In this document: positions 10,129-55,768 of the stretch, piece after piece
Layout: every line of letters begins with the position of its first letter
How positions within the stretch are numbered: the stretch's first letter is position 1
Source of the DNA: Escherichia coli
GTDB taxonomy: Bacteria > Pseudomonadota > Gammaproteobacteria > Enterobacterales > Enterobacteriaceae
Strand: one strand, 5' to 3'
Length of the DNA stretch: 64,000 bases
Assembly: GCF_003018255.1 (NCBI RefSeq)
Contig: NZ_CP027440.1
Notes under the pieces: model-generated
What the model was told of the DNA's origin: nothing
The model's database searches: none
The model's input: only the letters and a program-made list of their open reading frames with translations
Translations under genes and position numbers: made by a program

Positions 10129-10473
10129 TTAAAAAGGATTGTAGTTTGAAAAGGGTTCGGCAATTGCCACACCAAAATTTTTCAATCGGCATGTTGCAGC
10201 AAATTCGTCCTGGCGATTTACAAACAGGCACGGCTCACCTTCACACTCCAGCACCGAACATGGAACTTCGATGTCGCTTAACGCCTGGCTTAGTTTGTAC
10301 ATCACCGACCATGCATTATCACCATCCGGGCTAAGCAATTTAAGCGCCACCAGGCTGTTGTCACCGCACGGTCCATTTTGCGGAATCGGTTCAACCTTCG
10401 AACCTGCGAAACCAGCAGACCAGCGATAGTTCTGCGGCAGTCGATGGACGATTGAGAGTTGTAATGAAGTCAC
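10129..10473 (-). CDS. yejG: conserved protein of unknown function YejG
   Basis: 114 aa ORF, length and sequence match YejG. Confidence 0.85.
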
Positions 10474-41566: not shown

Positions 41567-41599
41567 ACAAAACCTTCACTCGCAACTAGAATATCTTCC

Positions 41600-41692
41600 G
41601 CTATCATCATTAACTTTATTTATTACCGTCATTCATTTCTGAATGTCTGTTTACCCCTATTTCAACCGGATGCCTCGCATCCGGTTTTTTTT
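41600..41692 (+). ncRNA. micF: MicF antisense sRNA (represses ompF)
   Basis: GCTATCATCATTAACTTTATTTATTACCGTCATTCATTTCTGAATGTCTGTTTACCCCTATTTCAACCGGATGCCTCGCATCCGGTTTTTTTT; divergent from ompC; ends in hairpin plus U-tract. Confidence 0.9.
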
Positions 41693-45346: not shown

Positions 45347-45428
45347 CCTGTAGGCCAGATAAGACGCGTCAGTGTCTTATCTGGCATTTGCACGGATTGC
45401 CGGATGCGGCGTAAACGCCTTATCCGTC
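45347..45428. repeat. REP elements between convergent rcsB and rcsC
   Basis: ggccagataagacgcgtcagtgtcttatctggc and gccggatgcggcgtaaacgccttatccg palindromes. Confidence 0.7.
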
Positions 45429-48278
45429 CTACGATTCCCGCGATTTCCTGACCCTCTCGGCATATACCGTCAGCGTCTGTTTTATCACATCCAGCGTTAC
45501 CGGCTTCGACAGGCAGCTGTCCATACCGGACTCCAGACACCGCTGCTTCTCTTCAGCCAACGCATTAGCAGTTACTCCGATTACCGGCAACGTCAGTCCC
45601 AACTGACGAATGCGTTGCGTCAAGCGGTAACCATCCATATTTGGCATGTTGACGTCGCTAAGCACGATATCAATATGATTCTTGCTAAGTACATTAAGCG
45701 CATCGACGCCATCATTCGCGGTTTTACATTGATAGCCCAACGATCCCAACTGATCTGCCAGCAGACGCCGGTTAATCGGATGATCATCCACGACCAGAAT
45801 CATCATATCGTCATTATCGCTGACCGCTTTGTCCGTTAACGGCAGAGCGTTAGCAGGATCGTCGCTCTCCATCTCGATCAAATAAATACGCGCCAACAAT
45901 GCCGGTAGCTCATGCGGGGCAGCCACACTGTGTACCCACTCTCCTGGCGCTTTCTCCAGCGGAATACCAATATGGCGACGACAGAAGGTCACAACCGCTC
46001 TACCCTGCCATTTTTTGCTCACTACCTCGTCAGTGATTAACACATCTTCGGGAGTCGGTTCCTGCCCTTCGTATGTTGTAACGACGATGCCGCTGCGCTG
46101 CAAACTGGTTTCCAGGAACTGACAGAGCGACGCATTGCGGACCGCCAGCCAGCAACGTTTACCACTCAACCCTTCCACGCCTTTTTTCTGCGGGTACTGA
46201 GCGCCGTACAACGGAATACGCACGGTAAACTGGCTGCCCATTCCCGGTTCTGAATCTACCGAGATGTCGCCGTCCATCATGCTGATCAGTTTTTCACAAA
46301 TCGCCAGACCCAGACCGGTCCCCTGGAAGTTACGCTGTACGCCCGTTCCGACCTGGAAGAAGGGATCAAACAAGCGCACCACTTCTTTCGCCGGAATCCC
46401 TACGCCGGTATCGCGAACACGGATAGAGAGATAATCGCCATCAGCGCGAACATGCAGAACTATACAGCCGGTATCGGTGAATTTTATGGCGTTACTCAAC
46501 AGGTTGGAGATGACCTGCTGTAAACGCATCGGGTCGCCATTTAAGGCCACTGGCACATCCGGTTCAATAAAGCAGTACAAGCCTAGCTGCTTGCGTACCA
46601 CCAGCGGTAAATAGTTGGCGGTGATGTGGTTCATCACTTCACGCGGTGAAAACTCACGCGGTTCGATCTTCAACTGTTCCGATTCAATCTTCGAGAAGTC
46701 GAGAATATCGCTGATAATTTTCAACAACAGGCTGGAAGAGTTGTTCATTGCCGTCACCAGACGATCGACGCCTTTCGGTAACTCTTTGGTTTGCAACAGA
46801 TCCAGGTTACCGATAATGCCATACAGCGGCGTTCGCAGCTCATGACTGACGGTGGCAAGGAACATCGATTTTGACTGGCTCGCCTGTTCCGCTGCTTGTG
46901 CCATCTCCTGCAACGACTCTTCCATCTTCACGCGCGAAGAAACATCCACCAGCACACAAATGGCCACGTTTTCATTACGATAGCGCGAATGGACGAAGCT
47001 GATTTGCAGGTTGGTATTGTTGCTGGTCAGGACATCAACAAAATTGACCTGCTGCCCACAGATAATTTGTGTCAGCCGTTGGCGGTCCTCATGCGTAAGC
47101 ATATTGAGATAGGTATGCGCCAGTTCGTTACTTAAAATATTGACGCCATCAGCGGTACGCAAAATGCAGATACCCACTGGCGCGGAGGCGACAATCTTGC
47201 GATTAAACTGCTCATGTTCTTCCAGTCGCAGGGCGTCGCTTTCCGCCGGAATGAAAATACGCCGCTCGTACATCCGCGCGAGAGTAAACAATGCAGCTCC
47301 GGCAAGCACATTCAGCAAAATTGCGTTAAGGATCAACATGCGAATGCGTTCCAGCACCTTATCAACCGGCACCGAATACACGATGCTTAGCGATGAGGGT
47401 GGCAGATTTTTCTTCAGCACCAGCTCCCGGAACCCTTCCGTATAGCCAAACCAGGAGCGTTCCTGCATCCAGCGAGGATCGCCCTTAATTTTGCTTTCTG
47501 GTCCGGTAAGCGAAATCAGGGTATGACCATTTTCATCAAGAATGGTAACCCCCATCGGCAACGTACCAGGTAAGAAAAAGTTCTCCATCCGGATGGTCTG
47601 CTCGACACCCAAAAGCGCCTGCAACCGGTTCGCCAGATAAACTGGCGTCAAGGCGTAAAAATACCCGACGCCAGGGCGCGGACCTTCGCTGATCCAGTAG
47701 AGGTTACTGCCACTATCATCTTGTGGTGCATTTCGATATTTATTAATGCGTTCATGCAAAGCTTTTAACGCGGTATCGCGTTCCACTGGCATATCACGCA
47801 GACCGAAATTGGCCATGCAGAGGTTATCGCTGCCGATTAAAAATACCCGGTTGAGATCGTAAGCCGCAGAAAAATTATCGCGCCAGTAGCGCATAAACCA
47901 CGCCAATGACTCCAGAGAACCTCGCCAGGTGTTACTCATTGCGGAACAATCAGAGTCAGCAAATAGCGGTTCAAACGCAGGCACATCCGTCTGCGTTTCT
48001 CGTCCACGCGGGGAAAGCACACCGTTTTCTGCCGATAAGCGATTTTCAGCTATGTACTTCAGCTCTTTCATCACATCAGAGGTGCGTTGAATAAAGCGCT
48101 GAGCCTGATCGGAACTCAGATTAAATTCCTGACGAATTTCCGATTCTCGCTGATGTAACGCATTAACGATGTAAAAAACGGATGAAAAAGCAATCAACAG
48201 CCAGAGCACTAACGCCAATGCTCTGAACATGTAGCGCGAGGCTTTCAGGGTTGTACGAAAAGAAGCAAGGTATTTCAA
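45429..48278 (-). CDS. rcsC: hybrid sensor kinase RcsC
   Basis: 949 aa; TM segments, H-box SHELRTP, ATPase domain, C-terminal receiver domain. Confidence 0.95.
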   Translation of the reverse strand: MKYLASFRTTLKASRYMFRALALVLWLLIAFSSVFYIVNALHQRESEIRQEFNLSSDQAQRFIQRTSDVMKELKYIAENRLSAENGVLSPRGRETQTDVPAFEPLFADSDCSAMSNTWRGSLESLAWFMRYWRDNFSAAYDLNRVFLIGSDNLCMANFGLRDMPVERDTALKALHERINKYRNAPQDDSGSNLYWISEGPRPGVGYFYALTPVYLANRLQALLGVEQTIRMENFFLPGTLPMGVTILDENGHTLISLTGPESKIKGDPRWMQERSWFGYTEGFRELVLKKNLPPSSLSIVYSVPVDKVLERIRMLILNAILLNVLAGAALFTLARMYERRIFIPAESDALRLEEHEQFNRKIVASAPVGICILRTADGVNILSNELAHTYLNMLTHEDRQRLTQIICGQQVNFVDVLTSNNTNLQISFVHSRYRNENVAICVLVDVSSRVKMEESLQEMAQAAEQASQSKSMFLATVSHELRTPLYGIIGNLDLLQTKELPKGVDRLVTAMNNSSSLLLKIISDILDFSKIESEQLKIEPREFSPREVMNHITANYLPLVVRKQLGLYCFIEPDVPVALNGDPMRLQQVISNLLSNAIKFTDTGCIVLHVRADGDYLSIRVRDTGVGIPAKEVVRLFDPFFQVGTGVQRNFQGTGLGLAICEKLISMMDGDISVDSEPGMGSQFTVRIPLYGAQYPQKKGVEGLSGKRCWLAVRNASLCQFLETSLQRSGIVVTTYEGQEPTPEDVLITDEVVSKKWQGRAVVTFCRRHIGIPLEKAPGEWVHSVAAPHELPALLARIYLIEMESDDPANALPLTDKAVSDNDDMMILVVDDHPINRRLLADQLGSLGYQCKTANDGVDALNVLSKNHIDIVLSDVNMPNMDGYRLTQRIRQLGLTLPVIGVTANALAEEKQRCLESGMDSCLSKPVTLDVIKQTLTVYAERVRKSRES

Positions 48279-48444
48279 AGGGGCGAAGCTCCGCCTCAGG
48301 TGACCGATGGAGTGTGGTTAAGGTAGCGGTAAAAGCGTGTTACCGCAATGTTCTCTCTTCTCTGGAATATGATACACCGCCGAGAAATCATCACCTTAAC
48401 CTCTGATAATCGTCATATACCGGACAAGACTAGTGGATTTCAGC

Positions 48445-50271
48445 ATGCATTATATGAAGTGGATTTATCCACGCCGCTTACGCAATCAAATGATCCTGAT
48501 GGCAATCCTGATGGTCATTGTCCCAACGCTTACTATTGGTTATATCGTAGAAACGGAAGGACGTTCAGCAGTCTTATCTGAAAAAGAGAAAAAACTTTCT
48601 GCCGTGGTCAACCTGCTTAATCAGGCGCTAGGCAATCGCTACGATCTCTACATCGACTTACCGCGTGAGGAGCGTATCCGCGCATTAAATGCAGAACTTG
48701 CCCCCATTACCGAAAATATCACTCACGCCTTCCCTGGCATCGGCGCTGGTTATTACAACAAAACGCTGGATGCGATAATCACCTACGCGCCTTCAGCGCT
48801 ATATCAGAATAATGTGGGCGTTACCATTGCCGCAGATCACCCTGGTCGCGAAGTCATGCGTACAAATACCCCTTTGGTTTATTCAGGCAGACAGGTGCGC
48901 GGCGATATTTTGAATTCAATGATTCCCATTGAGCGTAATGGTGAAATCCTCGGCTATATCTGGGCCAATGAATTAACCGAAGATATTCGCCGCCAGGCCT
49001 GGAAAATGGATGTGAGGATTATCATTGTGCTCACCGCCGGTTTGCTGATAAGCCTGCTGTTGATTGTCCTTTTCTCCCGTCGCCTGAGCGCCAATATAGA
49101 TATCATCACCGATGGCCTCTCGACTCTGGCTCAAAATATTCCCACTCGATTACCACAATTGCCCGGTGAAATGGGGCAAATCAGTCAGAGTGTTAACAAC
49201 CTCGCCCAGGCACTGCGTGAAACGCGAACACTTAACGATCTGATTATTGAAAACGCTGCCGATGGCGTCATTGCCATTGACCGCCAGGGTGATGTAACCA
49301 CCATGAACCCAGCAGCAGAAGTCATCACTGGCTATCAACGTCATGAACTGGTAGGGCAGCCTTACTCCATGTTGTTCGACAATACTCAGTTCTACAGTCC
49401 CGTACTGGATACGCTGGAACATGGCACCGAACATGTAGCACTGGAGATCAGTTTTCCAGGCCGTGACCGCACCATTGAACTCAGTGTCACGACCAGTCGT
49501 ATTCATAACACGCACGGTGAAATGATAGGTGCTTTGGTGATTTTCTCTGATTTAACTGCCCGCAAAGAAACCCAGCGCCGCATGGCGCAAGCAGAACGCC
49601 TCGCCACACTGGGTGAGCTGATGGCTGGCGTGGCGCATGAAGTACGTAATCCGCTAACAGCTATTCGTGGTTATGTACAGATCTTGCGCCAACAAACCCG
49701 TGACCCAATACATCAGGAATATCTGTCCGTAGTACTCAAAGAAATCGATTCAATTAACAAAGTTATTCAGCAATTGCTCGAATTTTCACGCCCACGCCAC
49801 AGTCAATGGCAACAAGTCAGCCTCAATGCATTGGTTGAAGAAACTCTGGTACTGGTACAAACCGCCGGCGTACAAGCGCGGGTCGACTTCATAAGCGAAC
49901 TGGATAATGAATTAAGCCCGATTAACGCCGATCGTGAACTGCTCAAACAGGTACTACTGAATATCCTGATCAATGCCGTCCAGGCTATCAGTGCACGAGG
50001 GAAAATTCGCATTCGAACCTGGCAATACAGCGACTCACAACAGGCCATTTCGATAGAGGACAACGGCTGTGGCATTGATCTCTCGCTGCAAAAAAAGATC
50101 TTCGATCCCTTTTTCACCACCAAAGCCTCAGGAACCGGGCTTGGTCTGGCGTTAAGTCAACGCATCATTAATGCCCATCAGGGTGATATTCGCGTCGCCA
50201 GTTTGCCGGGCTACGGCGCAACCTTCACGCTTATTTTACCGATCAACCCGCAGGGAAATCAGACTGTATGA
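48445..50271 (+). CDS. atoS: sensor histidine kinase AtoS
   Basis: ORF track 48433-50271; ATG at 48445 (MHYMKWIYP) gives 608 aa; H-box AHEVRNP. Confidence 0.9.
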   Translation: MHYMKWIYPRRLRNQMILMAILMVIVPTLTIGYIVETEGRSAVLSEKEKKLSAVVNLLNQALGNRYDLYIDLPREERIRALNAELAPITENITHAFPGIGAGYYNKTLDAIITYAPSALYQNNVGVTIAADHPGREVMRTNTPLVYSGRQVRGDILNSMIPIERNGEILGYIWANELTEDIRRQAWKMDVRIIIVLTAGLLISLLLIVLFSRRLSANIDIITDGLSTLAQNIPTRLPQLPGEMGQISQSVNNLAQALRETRTLNDLIIENAADGVIAIDRQGDVTTMNPAAEVITGYQRHELVGQPYSMLFDNTQFYSPVLDTLEHGTEHVALEISFPGRDRTIELSVTTSRIHNTHGEMIGALVIFSDLTARKETQRRMAQAERLATLGELMAGVAHEVRNPLTAIRGYVQILRQQTRDPIHQEYLSVVLKEIDSINKVIQQLLEFSRPRHSQWQQVSLNALVEETLVLVQTAGVQARVDFISELDNELSPINADRELLKQVLLNILINAVQAISARGKIRIRTWQYSDSQQAISIEDNGCGIDLSLQKKIFDPFFTTKASGTGLGLALSQRIINAHQGDIRVASLPGYGATFTLILPINPQGNQTV

Positions 50272-51653
50272 CTGCTATTAATCGCATCCTTATTGTGGAT
50301 GATGAAGATAATGTTCGCCGTATGCTGAGCACCGCTTTTGCACTACAAGGTTTCGAAACACATTGTGCGAACAACGGACGCACAGCATTACACCTGTTTG
50401 CTGATATTCACCCTGACGTGGTGTTGATGGATATCCGCATGCCAGAGATGGACGGCATCAAGGCACTAAAGGAGATGCGCAGTAATGAGACCCGGACACC
50501 CGTTATTCTGATGACGGCCTATGCTGAAGTGGAAACCGCCGTCGAAGCGCTACGCTGCGGGGCCTTCGACTATGTTATTAAACCGTTTGATCTCGATGAG
50601 TTGAATTTAATCGTTCAGCGCGCTTTACAACTCCAGTCAATGAAAAAAGAGATCCGTCATCTGCACCAGGCACTGAGCACCAGCTGGCAATGGGGGCACA
50701 TTCTCACCAACAGCCCGGCGATGATGGATATCTGCAAAGACACCGCCAAAATTGCCCTTTCTCAGGCCAGCGTCTTGATTAGCGGTGAAAGCGGCACCGG
50801 GAAAGAGTTGATTGCCAGAGCGATTCACTACAATTCGCGGCGGGCAAAGGGGCCGTTCATTAAAGTCAACTGCGCGGCGCTGCCGGAATCGTTGCTCGAA
50901 AGTGAACTGTTTGGTCATGAAAAAGGTGCATTTACTGGTGCACAAACCTTGCGTCAGGGATTATTTGAACGTGCCAACGAAGGTACTCTGCTCCTCGACG
51001 AAATTGGCGAAATGCCGCTCGTACTGCAAGCCAAATTACTACGCATTCTGCAGGAACGGGAATTTGAACGGATTGGCGGTCATCAGACCATAAAAGTTGA
51101 CATCCGCATCATTGCTGCCACCAACCGTGACTTGCAGGCAATGGTAAAAGAAGGCACCTTCCGTGAAGATCTCTTTTATCGCCTTAACGTTATTCATTTA
51201 ATACTGCCGCCTCTGCGCGATCGCCGGGAAGATATTTCCCTGTTAGCTAATCACTTTTTGCAAAAATTCAGTAGTGAGAATCAGCGCGATATTATCGACA
51301 TCGATCCGATGGCAATGTCGCTGCTTACCGCCTGGTCATGGCCGGGTAATATTCGAGAGCTTTCCAACGTCATTGAACGCGCCGTCGTGATGAACTCAGG
51401 CCCGATCATTTTCTCTGAGGATCTTCCGCCGCAGATTCGTCAGCCAGTCTGTAATGCTGGTGAGGCAAAAACAGCCCCTGTCGGTGAGCGTAATTTAAAA
51501 GAGGAAATTAAACGCGTCGAAAAACGCATCATTATGGAAGTGCTGGAACAACAAGAAGGAAACCGAACCCGCACTGCGTTAATGCTGGGCATCAGTCGCC
51601 GTGCATTGATGTATAAACTCCAGGAATACGGTATCGATCCGGCGGATGTATAA
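50268..51653 (+). CDS. atoC: sigma-54-dependent response regulator AtoC (NtrC family)
   Basis: 461 aa; REC domain, AAA+ sigma-54 activator motifs GESGTGKE and ESELFGHEKGAF, C-terminal HTH; start overlaps atoS stop. Confidence 0.95.
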   Translation: MTAINRILIVDDEDNVRRMLSTAFALQGFETHCANNGRTALHLFADIHPDVVLMDIRMPEMDGIKALKEMRSNETRTPVILMTAYAEVETAVEALRCGAFDYVIKPFDLDELNLIVQRALQLQSMKKEIRHLHQALSTSWQWGHILTNSPAMMDICKDTAKIALSQASVLISGESGTGKELIARAIHYNSRRAKGPFIKVNCAALPESLLESELFGHEKGAFTGAQTLRQGLFERANEGTLLLDEIGEMPLVLQAKLLRILQEREFERIGGHQTIKVDIRIIAATNRDLQAMVKEGTFREDLFYRLNVIHLILPPLRDRREDISLLANHFLQKFSSENQRDIIDIDPMAMSLLTAWSWPGNIRELSNVIERAVVMNSGPIIFSEDLPPQIRQPVCNAGEAKTAPVGERNLKEEIKRVEKRIIMEVLEQQEGNRTRTALMLGISRRALMYKLQEYGIDPADV

Positions 51654-51664
51654 CGCCAAAACTT

Positions 51665-51705
51665 GCTATGCAGAAATTTGCACAGTGCGCAATTTTCTGC
51701 ATAGC
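51665..51705. promoter_or_regulatory. AtoC upstream activator site (40-bp palindrome)
   Basis: GCTATGCAGAAATTTGCACA / GTGCGCAATTTTCTGCATAGC inverted 20-mers about 100 bp upstream of the sigma-54 promoter. Confidence 0.7.
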
Positions 51706-51787
51706 CGCTCATTCTCCTTATGAATCCCCATCTAATTTATTCCTTTCTATTCAATTAGTTAAATAACAACATTCAATAATCTCATTC

Positions 51788-51802
51788 TGGCACTCCCCTT
51801 GC
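51788..51802 (+). promoter_or_regulatory. sigma-54 (-24/-12) promoter of atoDAEB
   Basis: TGGCAC-tcccc-TTGCT, GG and GC separated by 10 nt, 47 bp upstream of atoD start. Confidence 0.7.
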
Positions 51803-51848
51803 TATTCCCTGACTGTACCCACAACGGTGTATGCAAGAGGGATAAAAA

Positions 51849-52511
51849 ATGAAAACAAAATTGATGACATTACAAGACGCCACCGGCTTCTTTCGTGACG
51901 GCATGACCATCATGGTGGGCGGATTTATGGGGATTGGCACTCCATCCCGCCTGGTTGAAGCATTACTGGAATCTGGTGTTCGCGACCTGACATTGATAGC
52001 CAATGATACCGCGTTTGTTGATACCGGCATCGGTCCGCTCATCGTCAATGGTCGAGTCCGCAAAGTGATTGCTTCACATATCGGCACCAACCCGGAAACA
52101 GGTCGGCGCATGATATCTGGTGAGATGGACGTCGTTCTGGTGCCGCAAGGTACGCTAATCGAGCAAATTCGCTGTGGCGGAGCTGGACTTGGTGGTTTTC
52201 TCACCCCAACTGGTGTCGGCACCGTCGTAGAGGAAGGCAAACAGACACTGACACTCGACGGTAAAACCTGGCTGCTCGAACGCCCGCTGCGCGCCGACCT
52301 GGCGCTAATTCGCGCTCATCGTTGCGACACACTTGGCAACCTTACCTATCAACTTAGCGCCCGCAACTTTAACCCCCTGATAGCCCTTGCGGCTGATATC
52401 ACGCTGGTAGAGCCAGATGAACTGGTCGAAACCGGCGAGCTGCAACCTGACCATATTGTCACCCCTGGTGCCGTTATCGACCACATCATCGTTTCACAGG
52501 AGAGCAAATAA
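51849..52511 (+). CDS. atoD: acetate CoA-transferase alpha subunit
   Basis: 220 aa; operon position. Confidence 0.9.
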
Positions 52512-53161
52512 TGGATGCGAAACAACGTATTGCGCGCCGTGTGGCGCAAGAGCTTCGTGATGGTGACATCGTTAACTTAGGGATCGGTTTACCCACAATG
52601 GTCGCCAATTATTTACCGGAGGGTATTCATATCACTCTGCAATCGGAAAACGGCTTCCTCGGTTTAGGCCCGGTCACGACAGCGCATCCAGATCTGGTGA
52701 ACGCTGGCGGACAACCGTGCGGCATTTTACCCGGCGCAGCCATGTTTGATAGCGCCATGTCATTTGCGCTAATCCGCGGCGGTCATATTGATGCCTGCGT
52801 GCTCGGCGGTTTGCAAGTAGACGAAGAAGCAAACCTCGCGAACTGGGTAGTGCCTGGGAAAATGGTGCCCGGTATGGGTGGCGCGATGGATCTGGTGACC
52901 GGGTCACGCAAAGTGATCATCGCCATGGAACATTGCGCCAAAGATGGTTCAGCAAAAATTTTGCGCCGCTGCACCATGCCACTCACTGCGCAACATGCGG
53001 TGCATATGCTGGTTACTGAACTGGCTGTCTTTCGTTTTATTGACGGCAAAATGTGGCTCACCGAAATTGCCGACGGGTGTGATTTAGCCACCGTGCGTGC
53101 CAAAACAGAAGCTCGGTTTGAAGTTGCCGCCGATCTGAATACGCAACGGGGTGATTTATGA
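52511..53161 (+). CDS. atoA: acetate CoA-transferase beta subunit
   Basis: 216 aa; start overlaps atoD stop. Confidence 0.9.
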   Translation: MDAKQRIARRVAQELRDGDIVNLGIGLPTMVANYLPEGIHITLQSENGFLGLGPVTTAHPDLVNAGGQPCGILPGAAMFDSAMSFALIRGGHIDACVLGGLQVDEEANLANWVVPGKMVPGMGGAMDLVTGSRKVIIAMEHCAKDGSAKILRRCTMPLTAQHAVHMLVTELAVFRFIDGKMWLTEIADGCDLATVRAKTEARFEVAADLNTQRGDL

Positions 53162-54480
53162 TTGGTCGCATATCGCGTTTTATGACGCGTTTTGTCAGCC
53201 GGTGGCTTCCCGATCCACTGATCTTTGCCATGTTGCTGACATTGCTAACATTCGTGATCGCGCTTTGGTTAACACCACAAACGCCGATCAGCATGGTGAA
53301 AATGTGGGGTGATGGTTTCTGGAACTTGCTGGCGTTTGGTATGCAGATGGCGCTTATCATCGTTACCGGTCATGCCCTTGCCAGCTCCGCTCCGGTGAAA
53401 AGTTTGCTGCGTACTGCCGCCTCCGCCGCAAAGACGCCCGTACAGGGCGTCATGCTGGTTACTTTCTTCGGTTCAGTCGCTTGTGTCATCAACTGGGGAT
53501 TTGGTTTGGTTGTCGGTGCAATGTTCGCCCGTGAAGTCGCCCGGCGAGTACCCGGTTCTGATTATCCGTTGCTCATTGCCTGCGCCTACATTGGTTTTCT
53601 CACCTGGGGTGGCGGTTTCTCTGGCTCAATGCCTCTGTTGGCTGCAACACCGGGCAACCCGGTTGAGCATATCGCCGGGCTGATCCCGGTGGGCGATACT
53701 CTGTTCAGTGGTTTTAATATTTTCATCACTGTGGCGTTGATTGTGGTGATGCCATTTATCACCCGCATGATGATGCCAAAACCGTCTGACGTGGTGAGTA
53801 TCGATCCGAAACTACTCATGGAAGAGGCTGATTTTCAAAAGCAGCTACCGAAAGATGCCCCACCATCCGAGCGACTGGAAGAAAGCCGCATTCTGACGTT
53901 GATCATCGGCGCACTCGGTATCGCTTACCTTGCGATGTACTTCAGCGAACATGGCTTCAACATCACCATCAATACCGTCAACCTGATGTTTATGATTGCG
54001 GGTCTGCTGCTACATAAAACGCCAATGGCTTATATGCGTGCTATCAGCGCGGCAGCACGCAGTACTGCCGGTATTCTGGTGCAATTCCCCTTCTACGCTG
54101 GGATCCAACTGATGATGGAGCATTCCGGTCTGGGCGGACTCATTACCGAATTCTTCATCAATGTTGCGAACAAAGACACCTTCCCGATCATGACCTTTTT
54201 TAGTTCTGCACTGATTAACTTCGCCGTTCCGTCTGGCGGCGGGCACTGGGTTATTCAGGGGCCGTTCGTGATGCCCGCAGCCCAGGCGCTGGGCGCTGAT
54301 CTCGGTAAATCGGTAATGGCGATCGCCTACGGCGAGCAATGGATGAACATGGCACAACCGTTCTGGGCGCTGCCAGCACTGGCAATCGCCGGACTCGGTG
54401 TCCGCGACATCATGGGCTATTGCATCACTGCCCTGCTCTTCTCCGGCGTCATTTTCGTCATTGGTTTAACGCTGTTCTGA
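53158..54480 (+). CDS. atoE: short-chain fatty acid transporter AtoE
   Basis: 440 aa polytopic membrane protein. Confidence 0.9.
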   Translation: MIGRISRFMTRFVSRWLPDPLIFAMLLTLLTFVIALWLTPQTPISMVKMWGDGFWNLLAFGMQMALIIVTGHALASSAPVKSLLRTAASAAKTPVQGVMLVTFFGSVACVINWGFGLVVGAMFAREVARRVPGSDYPLLIACAYIGFLTWGGGFSGSMPLLAATPGNPVEHIAGLIPVGDTLFSGFNIFITVALIVVMPFITRMMMPKPSDVVSIDPKLLMEEADFQKQLPKDAPPSERLEESRILTLIIGALGIAYLAMYFSEHGFNITINTVNLMFMIAGLLLHKTPMAYMRAISAAARSTAGILVQFPFYAGIQLMMEHSGLGGLITEFFINVANKDTFPIMTFFSSALINFAVPSGGGHWVIQGPFVMPAAQALGADLGKSVMAIAYGEQWMNMAQPFWALPALAIAGLGVRDIMGYCITALLFSGVIFVIGLTLF

Positions 54481-54510
54481 CGGCAACCCTACAGACAGAA
54501 GGAATATAAA

Positions 54511-55695
54511 ATGAAAAATTGTGTCATCGTCAGTGCGGTACGTACTGCTATCGGTAGTTTTAACGGTTCACTCGCTTCCACCAGCGCCATCGACCTGGGG
54601 GCGACAGTAATTAAAGCCGCCATTGAACGTGCAAAAATCGATTCACTACACGTTGATGAAGTGATTATGGGTAACGTGTTGCAAGCCGGACTGGGGCAAA
54701 ATCCGGCACGTCAGGCGCTGCTAAAAAGCGGACTGGCTGAAACGGTGTGCGGATTCACGGTCAACAAAGTGTGCGGTTCAGGTCTGAAAAGCGTGGCGCT
54801 TGCTGCACAGGCGATTCAGGCAGGTCAGGCACAGAGCATTGTGGCGGGGGGTATGGAAAATATGAGTTTAGCGCCCTACTTACTCGATGCAAAAGCACGC
54901 TCTGGTTATCGTCTTGGAGACGGACAGGTTTATGACGTAATCCTGCGCGATGGTCTGATGTGCGCCACCCATGGTTATCATATGGGGATTACCGCCGAAA
55001 ACGTGGCTAAAGAGTACGGAATTACCCGTGAAATGCAGGATGAACTGGCGCTACATTCACAGCGTAAAGCGGCAGCCGCAATTGAGTCCGGTGCTTTTAC
55101 AGCCGAAATCGTCCCGGTAAATGTTGTCACTCGGAAGAAAACCGTCGTCTTCAGTCAAGACGAATTCCCGAAAGCGGATTCTACGACTGAAGCGTTAGGC
55201 GCATTGCGCCCGGCCTTCGATAAAGCAGGAACAGTCACCGCCGGGAACGCGTCTGGTATTAACGACGGTGCTGCCGCTCTGGTGATTATGGAAGAATCTG
55301 CGGCGCTGGCAGCAGGCCTTACCCCCCTGGCTCGCATTAAAAGTTATGCCAGCGGTGGCGTGCCCCCCGCATTGATGGGTATGGGGCCAGTACCTGCCAC
55401 GCAAAAAGCGTTACAACTGGCGGGGCTGCAACTGGCGGATATTGATCTCATTGAGGCTAATGAAGCATTTGCTGCACAGTTCCTTGCCGTTGGGAAAACC
55501 CTGGGCTTTGATTCTGAGAAAGTGAATGTCAACGGCGGGGCCATCGCGCTCGGGCATCCTATCGGTGCCAGTGGTGCTCGTATTCTGGTCACACTATTAC
55601 ATGCCATGCAGGCACGCGATAAAACGCTGGGGCTGGCAACACTATGCATTGGTGGCGGCCAGGGAATTGCGATGGTGATTGAACGGTTGAATTAA
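54511..55695 (+). CDS. atoB: acetyl-CoA acetyltransferase (thiolase II)
   Basis: 394 aa; active-site Cys in VNKVCGSG, C-terminal GGGQG. Confidence 0.95.
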
Positions 55696-55705
55696 TCAAT
55701 AAAAA

Positions 55706-55738
55706 CACCCGATAGCGAAAGTTATCGGGTGTTTTCTT
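55706..55738. terminator. bidirectional rho-independent terminator between convergent atoB and yfaP
   Basis: cacccgata-gcgaaagt-tatcgggtg hairpin flanked by A-run and T-run. Confidence 0.7.
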
Positions 55739-55768
55739 GAACATCGACGGCGAAGGTAACCCCATTAA

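Follow-up and report, generated by a model that had tools for sequence, protein, structure and literature searches.

Introduction

Does the spacer between atoC and atoD in this Escherichia coli chromosome hold an AtoSC-controlled sigma-54 control region for the atoDAEB operon, as an initial annotation had proposed from the sequence, and does the account given there name every element? Promoters of the class to which it would belong are activated at a -24/-12 element by an enhancer-bound regulator, as in NtrC/glnAp2 and in the IHF-assisted NifA/nifH and PrpR/prpBCDE systems. We approached the question within a window of 64,000 nucleotides, the whole stretch of DNA that was analyzed, by comparing the spacer and its flanking genes with those of E. 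coli K-12, with other E. coli genomes, and with orthologous loci in a divergent Escherichia and in Citrobacter. Our results indicate, with a probability that we place at about 0.93, that the region is the native control region of atoDAEB and a classical enhancer-dependent sigma-54 promoter, a feature that is already known and is textbook and ordinary in kind.

Results

A palindrome and a -24/-12 element identical to those of K-12 precede atoD

An inverted-repeat scan of the window (seed of at least 10, arms of at least 18, maximum distance 45) returned just two short-range repeats, the better of which lies at the start of the atoC-atoD spacer (Table 1). Its arms, at 51665-51684 (GCTATGCAGAAATTTGCACA) and 51686-51705 (TGCGCAATTTTCTGCATAGC), are 20 nt each with 1 nt between them and are complementary at 18/20 positions (90%). 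The inverted 20-mers of the initial annotation are therefore present, but the palindrome that they form measures 41 bp (20+1+20) rather than the 40 bp given there. The degenerate half-site GCTATGCAGAAAWTTGCRCA is found without mismatch at two places in the 64 kb, one on each strand, against an expectation of 0.02. All 41 bases are the same in K-12, and the 47 bp surrounding the palindrome recur exactly in 3,540 E. coli genomes. Counted from the atoD ATG at 51849, the first 20-mer occupies -184 to -165, which is the half-site position listed in Table 1 of PMC3118216; in that study the K-12 palindrome is an experimentally verified AtoC site, on which inducibility by acetoacetate and the binding of AtoC both depend; ChIP supports this in vivo, and atoDAEB expression is sigma-54-dependent and acetoacetate-inducible (PMC3118216).

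Downstream of the palindrome, TGGCACTCCCCTTGCT at 51788-51803 is the sole exact match to TGGCAC-N5-TTGCW within the 64-kb window. Since 0.19 such matches are expected in the window and at least one arises in 17/100 shuffles, the -24/-12 motif by itself is only mildly improbable, and its weight rests on position and conservation. The element is base-for-base identical to that of K-12, and the 77 bp surrounding the promoter recur exactly in 1,805 E. coli genomes and with one to three differing bases in 2,117 more. Its invariant dinucleotides, GG at 51789-90 and GC at 51801-02, stand 10 bp apart; the GG is 104 bp from the center of the palindrome, in agreement with the distance of about 100 bp first described, and the GC is 47 bp from the atoD ATG, exactly as had been annotated. 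The annotated end coordinate of 51802 needs a small correction, as it drops the last T of an element that ends at 51803. Elsewhere in the window, TGGCGCTTAAATTGCT at 10334-10349 on the minus strand resembles the sigma-54 consensus with one mismatch; it falls in the yejG coding sequence and is no more than chance predicts, 3.75 such sites being expected at no more than one mismatch.

Table 1. Positions of the genes and regulatory features of the ato module in the window
Feature	Position	Strand	Basis
atoS, acetoacetate-sensing histidine kinase, 608 aa	48445..50271	+	NF008468, 998 bits vs cut-off 646
atoC, sigma-54 enhancer-binding response regulator, 461 aa	50268..51653	+	NF008469, 1002 bits vs cut-off 714
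AtoC upstream activating site, inverted repeat of 20+1+20 bp	51665..51705	.	repeat scan and K-12 identity
IHF-like site ATTCAATTAGTTA between enhancer and promoter	51749..51761	+	consensus match, conserved position
Sigma-54 -24/-12 element TGGCAC-N5-TTGCT	51788..51803	+	consensus scan, K-12 identity, orthologues
Predicted transcription start	51811..51815	+	canonical spacing from the GG/GC dinucleotides
Leader segment ACUGUACCCACA, complementary to Spot 42 nt 1-12	51812..51823	+	duplex energy, conservation
Shine-Dalgarno-like AAGAGGGA before atoD	51835..51842	+	read from sequence; AGGGA invariant in 8 loci
atoD, acetate CoA-transferase alpha subunit, 220 aa	51849..52511	+	NF007394, 445 bits vs cut-off 315
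atoA, CoA-transferase beta subunit, 216 aa	52511..53161	+	TIGR02428, 307 bits vs cut-off 244; 1 aa from K-12
atoE, putative short-chain fatty acid transporter, 440 aa	53158..54480	+	TIGR00366, 748 bits vs cut-off 576; 2 aa from K-12
atoB, acetyl-CoA acetyltransferase (thiolase), 394 aa	54511..55695	+	TIGR01930, 493 bits vs cut-off 241; 5 aa from K-12
Terminator-like hairpin and T-run 3' of atoB (ACACCCGATA...TATCGGGTGT TTTTCTT)	55705..55738	+	read from sequence

Across the 195-bp spacer (51654-51848), the window differs from K-12 (MC4100) by nine single-base substitutions, none of which touches the palindrome or the -24/-12 element; the IHF-like core is likewise unchanged, as is the leader between -6 and the ATG. 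One of them, at 51807 (about -7), is C in the window, in 1,805 E. coli genomes, and in all of the Citrobacter and divergent Escherichia orthologues, and G in K-12; with C throughout the other lineages, the G of K-12 is the derived base. The K-12 promoter Pato (Matta et al. 2007, as described in PMC3118216) is thus matched here in locus, gene order, cis elements, and all spacings, and differs in the nine spacer bases and in two AtoC residues considered below. Published experiments on the K-12 sequence are consistent with this reading: genomic SELEX recorded in vitro binding of the RpoN holoenzyme to the atoC>atoD spacer (PMC8743547), and a Pato-GFP reporter that acetoacetate induces is inactive when atoS, atoC, or both are deleted (PMC7618054). 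A scan of 51400-52000 for sigma-70-like promoters returned no sites, and an Rfam search of the atoC-atoD spacer returned no family.

Conserved blocks across genera coincide with the published promoter layout

Using AtoC as the query, we recovered six orthologous loci from representative genomes, one from a divergent Escherichia (AtoC 90% identical) and five from Citrobacter (83-86%), and we aligned their atoC-atoD spacers with those of the window and of K-12. Four conserved blocks stand out amid otherwise drifting spacer sequence in the eight loci: the palindrome, the IHF-like ATTCAAnnnnTTA (51749-51761), TGGCA-N6-TTGC, and most of the leader. TGGCA-N6-TTGC is invariant in all eight, the palindrome starts 11 nt past the atoC stop codon in every one, the distance from its center to the GG of the -24 element varies only from 104 to 107 bp, and the -12 GC is separated from the atoD ATG by exactly 47 bp throughout. 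This cross-genus footprint constitutes independent sequence support for the published Pato architecture.

The second of these blocks was not part of the initial annotation. ATTCAATTAGTTA agrees with WATCAANNNNTTR at eight of nine specified positions, and because matches of this quality are near chance in the window (62 found, 50 expected), the case for an IHF-like site rests on position and conservation: a match occurs at an equal offset in 8/8 orthologous spacers, and the core TCAA-N4-TTA is intact in 6/8. Matta, in 2007, is said to have reported that the atoDAEB promoter requires IHF.

The same alignment bears on a different reading of the palindrome, in which it would act mainly or additionally as RNA, closing the 3' end of the atoSC transcript with a stem-loop that stabilizes the mRNA or limits read-through into atoDAEB. 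We consider this unlikely, though it has several features to recommend it: folded as RNA, the palindrome reaches -24.5 kcal/mol (z = -4.97), with none of 200 shuffles as stable; its start is fixed relative to the atoC stop in all eight loci; and in the divergent Escherichia a change from GCAGAAA to GCAAAAA appears in both arms, so that pairing is preserved. Such a symmetric change is, however, equally expected of a site bound by a protein dimer, and the arms are kept in sequence beyond what mere pairing would demand, as expected of a protein site. The hairpin moreover lacks a following U-tract, a terminator scan of the plus strand found nothing there, and promoter inducibility and AtoC binding have already been assigned to the bases of the palindrome (PMC3118216). 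A combined role, with the AtoC operator serving both as a DNA enhancer and as a 3' stem-loop of the atoSC mRNA, is suggested by the fixed 11-nt start and the very stable 20-bp RNA hairpin; it strikes us as improbable as well, and if true it would mean that the same 41 bp stabilize the atoSC transcript or insulate atoDAEB from read-through. Any RNA role would at most come in addition to that of the palindrome as the AtoC-bound enhancer of a sigma-54 promoter.

The atoD leader carries a candidate Spot 42 pairing segment

The fourth conserved block, also passed over in the initial annotation, includes a stretch of the leader with complementarity to the small RNA Spot 42 at its 5' end. The predicted duplex between ACUGUACCCACA and Spot 42 nt 1-12 has an energy of -15.7 kcal/mol, equalled by 7/2000 shuffles, but by 96/1802 genomic tiles (~5%). 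Within 51812-51823, CUGUACCC is a perfect 8-nt complement of Spot 42 nt 4-11, and GTACCCA is invariant in 8/8 orthologous leaders from Escherichia and Citrobacter; the Spot 42 sequence is itself 100% identical in 5,424 genomes, where it is annotated as Spot 42. With the full-length RNA, 412/500 shuffles formed a better duplex with the leader than the native sequence did, a comparison that is uninformative, so that only the 5' region was used. From complementarity and conservation, CUGUACCC in the atoD leader and GGGUACAG in Spot 42 can be put forward as candidate pairing partners.

This proposal fits published work in which atoD is a Spot 42 target repressed by that RNA and in which induction of a Pato reporter is lowered on glucose. 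Within the Spot 42 (spf) regulon, atoD is listed with gltA, nanC, paaK, galK, and xylF as having the 5'-region motif in common, and it differs in that its candidate site lies about 25-35 nt before the ATG rather than over the ribosome-binding site; that position is the very 5' end of the predicted atoD transcript, which counts against the pairing. We also considered a conserved leader hairpin as the cause of leader conservation and rejected it, as the fold reaches just -3.8 kcal/mol and substitutions between E. coli and Citrobacter break candidate pairs with no compensation.

The ato genes are full length, and residue 73 of AtoC is not conserved

The locus has the order rcsC / atoS-atoC / atoD-atoA-atoE-atoB / yfaP-yfaQ of the E. 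coli chromosome and matches strain JNE23-011, in which RefSeq annotates atoS, at 99.9% identity over 12.8 kb, and K-12 derivatives at about 98.3%. AtoS, AtoC, and AtoD pass NCBIfam equivalog thresholds, AtoA, AtoE, and AtoB pass family thresholds (Table 1), and each of the six genes runs its full length without an internal stop or a frameshift. AtoD is identical to its K-12 counterpart; AtoS differs from K-12 at five residues and has the H-box HEVRNPL; and AtoC carries H73N and V400A and no other change, retaining D55, the Walker A motif GESGTGK (173), GAFTGA (220), and the wild-type I129, whose replacement by serine (I129S) gives the constitutive atoC(c) allele (PMC5699524). The regulatory pair is accordingly as intact as the initial annotation had held it to be, in length as well as in key motifs.

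Several further features of the window came to light alongside the ato genes. The alpha-2-macroglobulin family gene yfaS (58200-62819, minus strand) is a single long open reading frame, annotated as intact in JNE23-011; in a K-12 derivative it is a pseudogene with an internal stop. A match to naRNA4, a nucleoid-associated noncoding RNA of REP type, lies between rcsB and rcsC (45353-45429, minus strand), and the antisense RNA MicF (41599-41692, plus strand), which Rfam scores at 116.8 bits, is encoded ahead of ompC and diverges from it. Before rplY, Rfam places an L25 ribosomal protein leader (RF03131; 14708-14733, plus strand), and at 18449-19410 a tRNA-Pro is followed by what is, in a near-identical genome, a degraded autotransporter beta-barrel pseudogene, frameshifted and truncated, a typical tRNA-adjacent remnant.

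Codon 73 of atoC (50484-50486) deserves separate consideration, as it reads AAT (Asn) here and CAT (His) in K-12. Lioliou, in 2005, reportedly proposed His73 as a second phosphorylation site of AtoC; our literature search on the His73/Asp55 phosphorylation sites of AtoC returned no relevant match. In the orthologues the residue is Arg or Gln, and with the cis elements conserved in those same loci, His73 is not required by the family. The exact 63-nt allele encoding Asn73 is present in at least 188 genomes, 188 of the 3,240 matched E. coli genomes. Residue 73 thus emerges as a non-conserved position, and H73N looks like a lineage polymorphism that is unlikely to disable the system.

These observations also weigh on the alternative that the module has fallen silent or changed its behavior in this lineage, with signaling impaired by H73N or by the AtoS substitutions and the locus decaying toward loss. 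The substitutions themselves (H73N and V400A in AtoC, five in AtoS), the minority status of the Asn73 allele, and the dispensability of a locus that is absent from about 1,500 genomes are what such a view would build on. We nevertheless judge it very unlikely: the six genes lack stops and frameshifts; D55, Walker A, GAFTGA, and every cis element are intact; Arg or Gln occupies residue 73 in orthologues with conserved cis elements; and the sharing of the Asn73 allele by many complete genomes argues against a recent defect. With all cis elements intact and six full-length genes, the ato module is very probably functional in this strain, to judge from its sequence.

The ato cassette is present in most but not all E. 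coli genomes

The initial annotation had described the ato locus as variably present among strains, and the genomes agree: the atoC-atoD spacer is found in 3,923/5,426 complete E. coli genomes (~72%), and the remaining ~28%, such as O157:H7, are without the whole ato block. In O157:H7 F7349, roughly 197 bp of different sequence stand between rcsC and yfaP in place of the segment corresponding to 48355-55767, which runs from the atoS promoter to the atoB terminator (7.4 kb). E. coli strain 4, from ground beef (NZ_CP045209.1, 1-17280), carries the ato cassette in an island rather than at rcsC/yfaP, with a tyrosine integrase, a phosphoethanolamine transferase, an outer membrane protein, and IS66 remnants as its neighbors; the junction between the outer membrane protein gene and atoS recurs in 48 genomes. 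This clean presence or absence, together with the island placement, indicates that the cassette behaves as a self-contained unit and suggests that it has moved horizontally as a whole.

Discussion

The evidence assembled here bears out the proposal of an AtoSC-controlled sigma-54 region upstream of atoD: its elements are identical to those of K-12, where the AtoC site has been verified (PMC3118216), RpoN binds the spacer (PMC8743547), and a reporter responds as the model predicts (PMC7618054). The description of the region as complete stands only in part, as the palindrome and the -24/-12 element are both present and two further features, an IHF-like site and a candidate segment of the leader for pairing with Spot 42, had been overlooked. 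That the motif matches are coincidental and that atoDAEB is driven by another type of promoter has a negligible chance of being correct, since the frequency of the -24/-12 motif among shuffles of the window (17/100) is the only point in its favor and is set against the lack of sigma-70-like promoters, a motif fixed 47 bp from the ATG and invariant across genera, RpoN binding to the K-12 spacer in vitro (PMC8743547), and a half-site expectation of 0.02.

As an enhancer-dependent sigma-54 promoter, the region would operate in a sequence of steps, the first two of which are established for the identical K-12 sequence: AtoS would sense acetoacetate and phosphorylate AtoC, and AtoC would occupy the palindrome (51665-51705), which is centered some 104 bp before the GG of the -24 element. 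By analogy with the NtrC family, and in keeping with the conserved layout and with the IHF requirement attributed to Matta in 2007, the AT-rich spacer with its IHF-like site may then bend so that the GAFTGA loop of the AtoC AAA+ ring reaches the sigma-54 closed complex. ATP hydrolysis by AtoC would open that complex at 51788-51803, as expected from its class of enhancer-binding proteins, and transcription from about 51811-51815, a position predicted from spacing, would read through atoD-atoA-atoE-atoB, supplying the CoA-transferase, the transporter, and the thiolase. The leader of about 35 nt may add a second, post-transcriptional layer, in which GUACCC, the candidate pairing site, engages the 5' end of Spot 42 and contributes to catabolite repression on glucose.

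Viewed against other systems of its class, the ato region resembles the NtrC/glnAp2 type in having a GAFTGA-containing AAA+ response regulator and a dyad enhancer about 100 bp before a -24/-12 promoter, and it would resemble IHF-assisted sigma-54 promoters in the AT-rich stretch with a putative IHF-like bend site between enhancer and promoter. It differs from the NtrC system in its single 41-bp dyad, where NtrC has tandem sites, and in its signal, acetoacetate perceived via AtoS. A further departure from the NtrC type follows from gene order: with atoSC immediately preceding the operon in the same orientation, the enhancer starts 11 nt past the stop codon of its own regulator.

Apart from its value for annotation, the finding is of small consequence; its relevance lies in the use of short-chain fatty acids and ketone bodies by E. 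coli in the gut and in the biosensors that are built on Pato.
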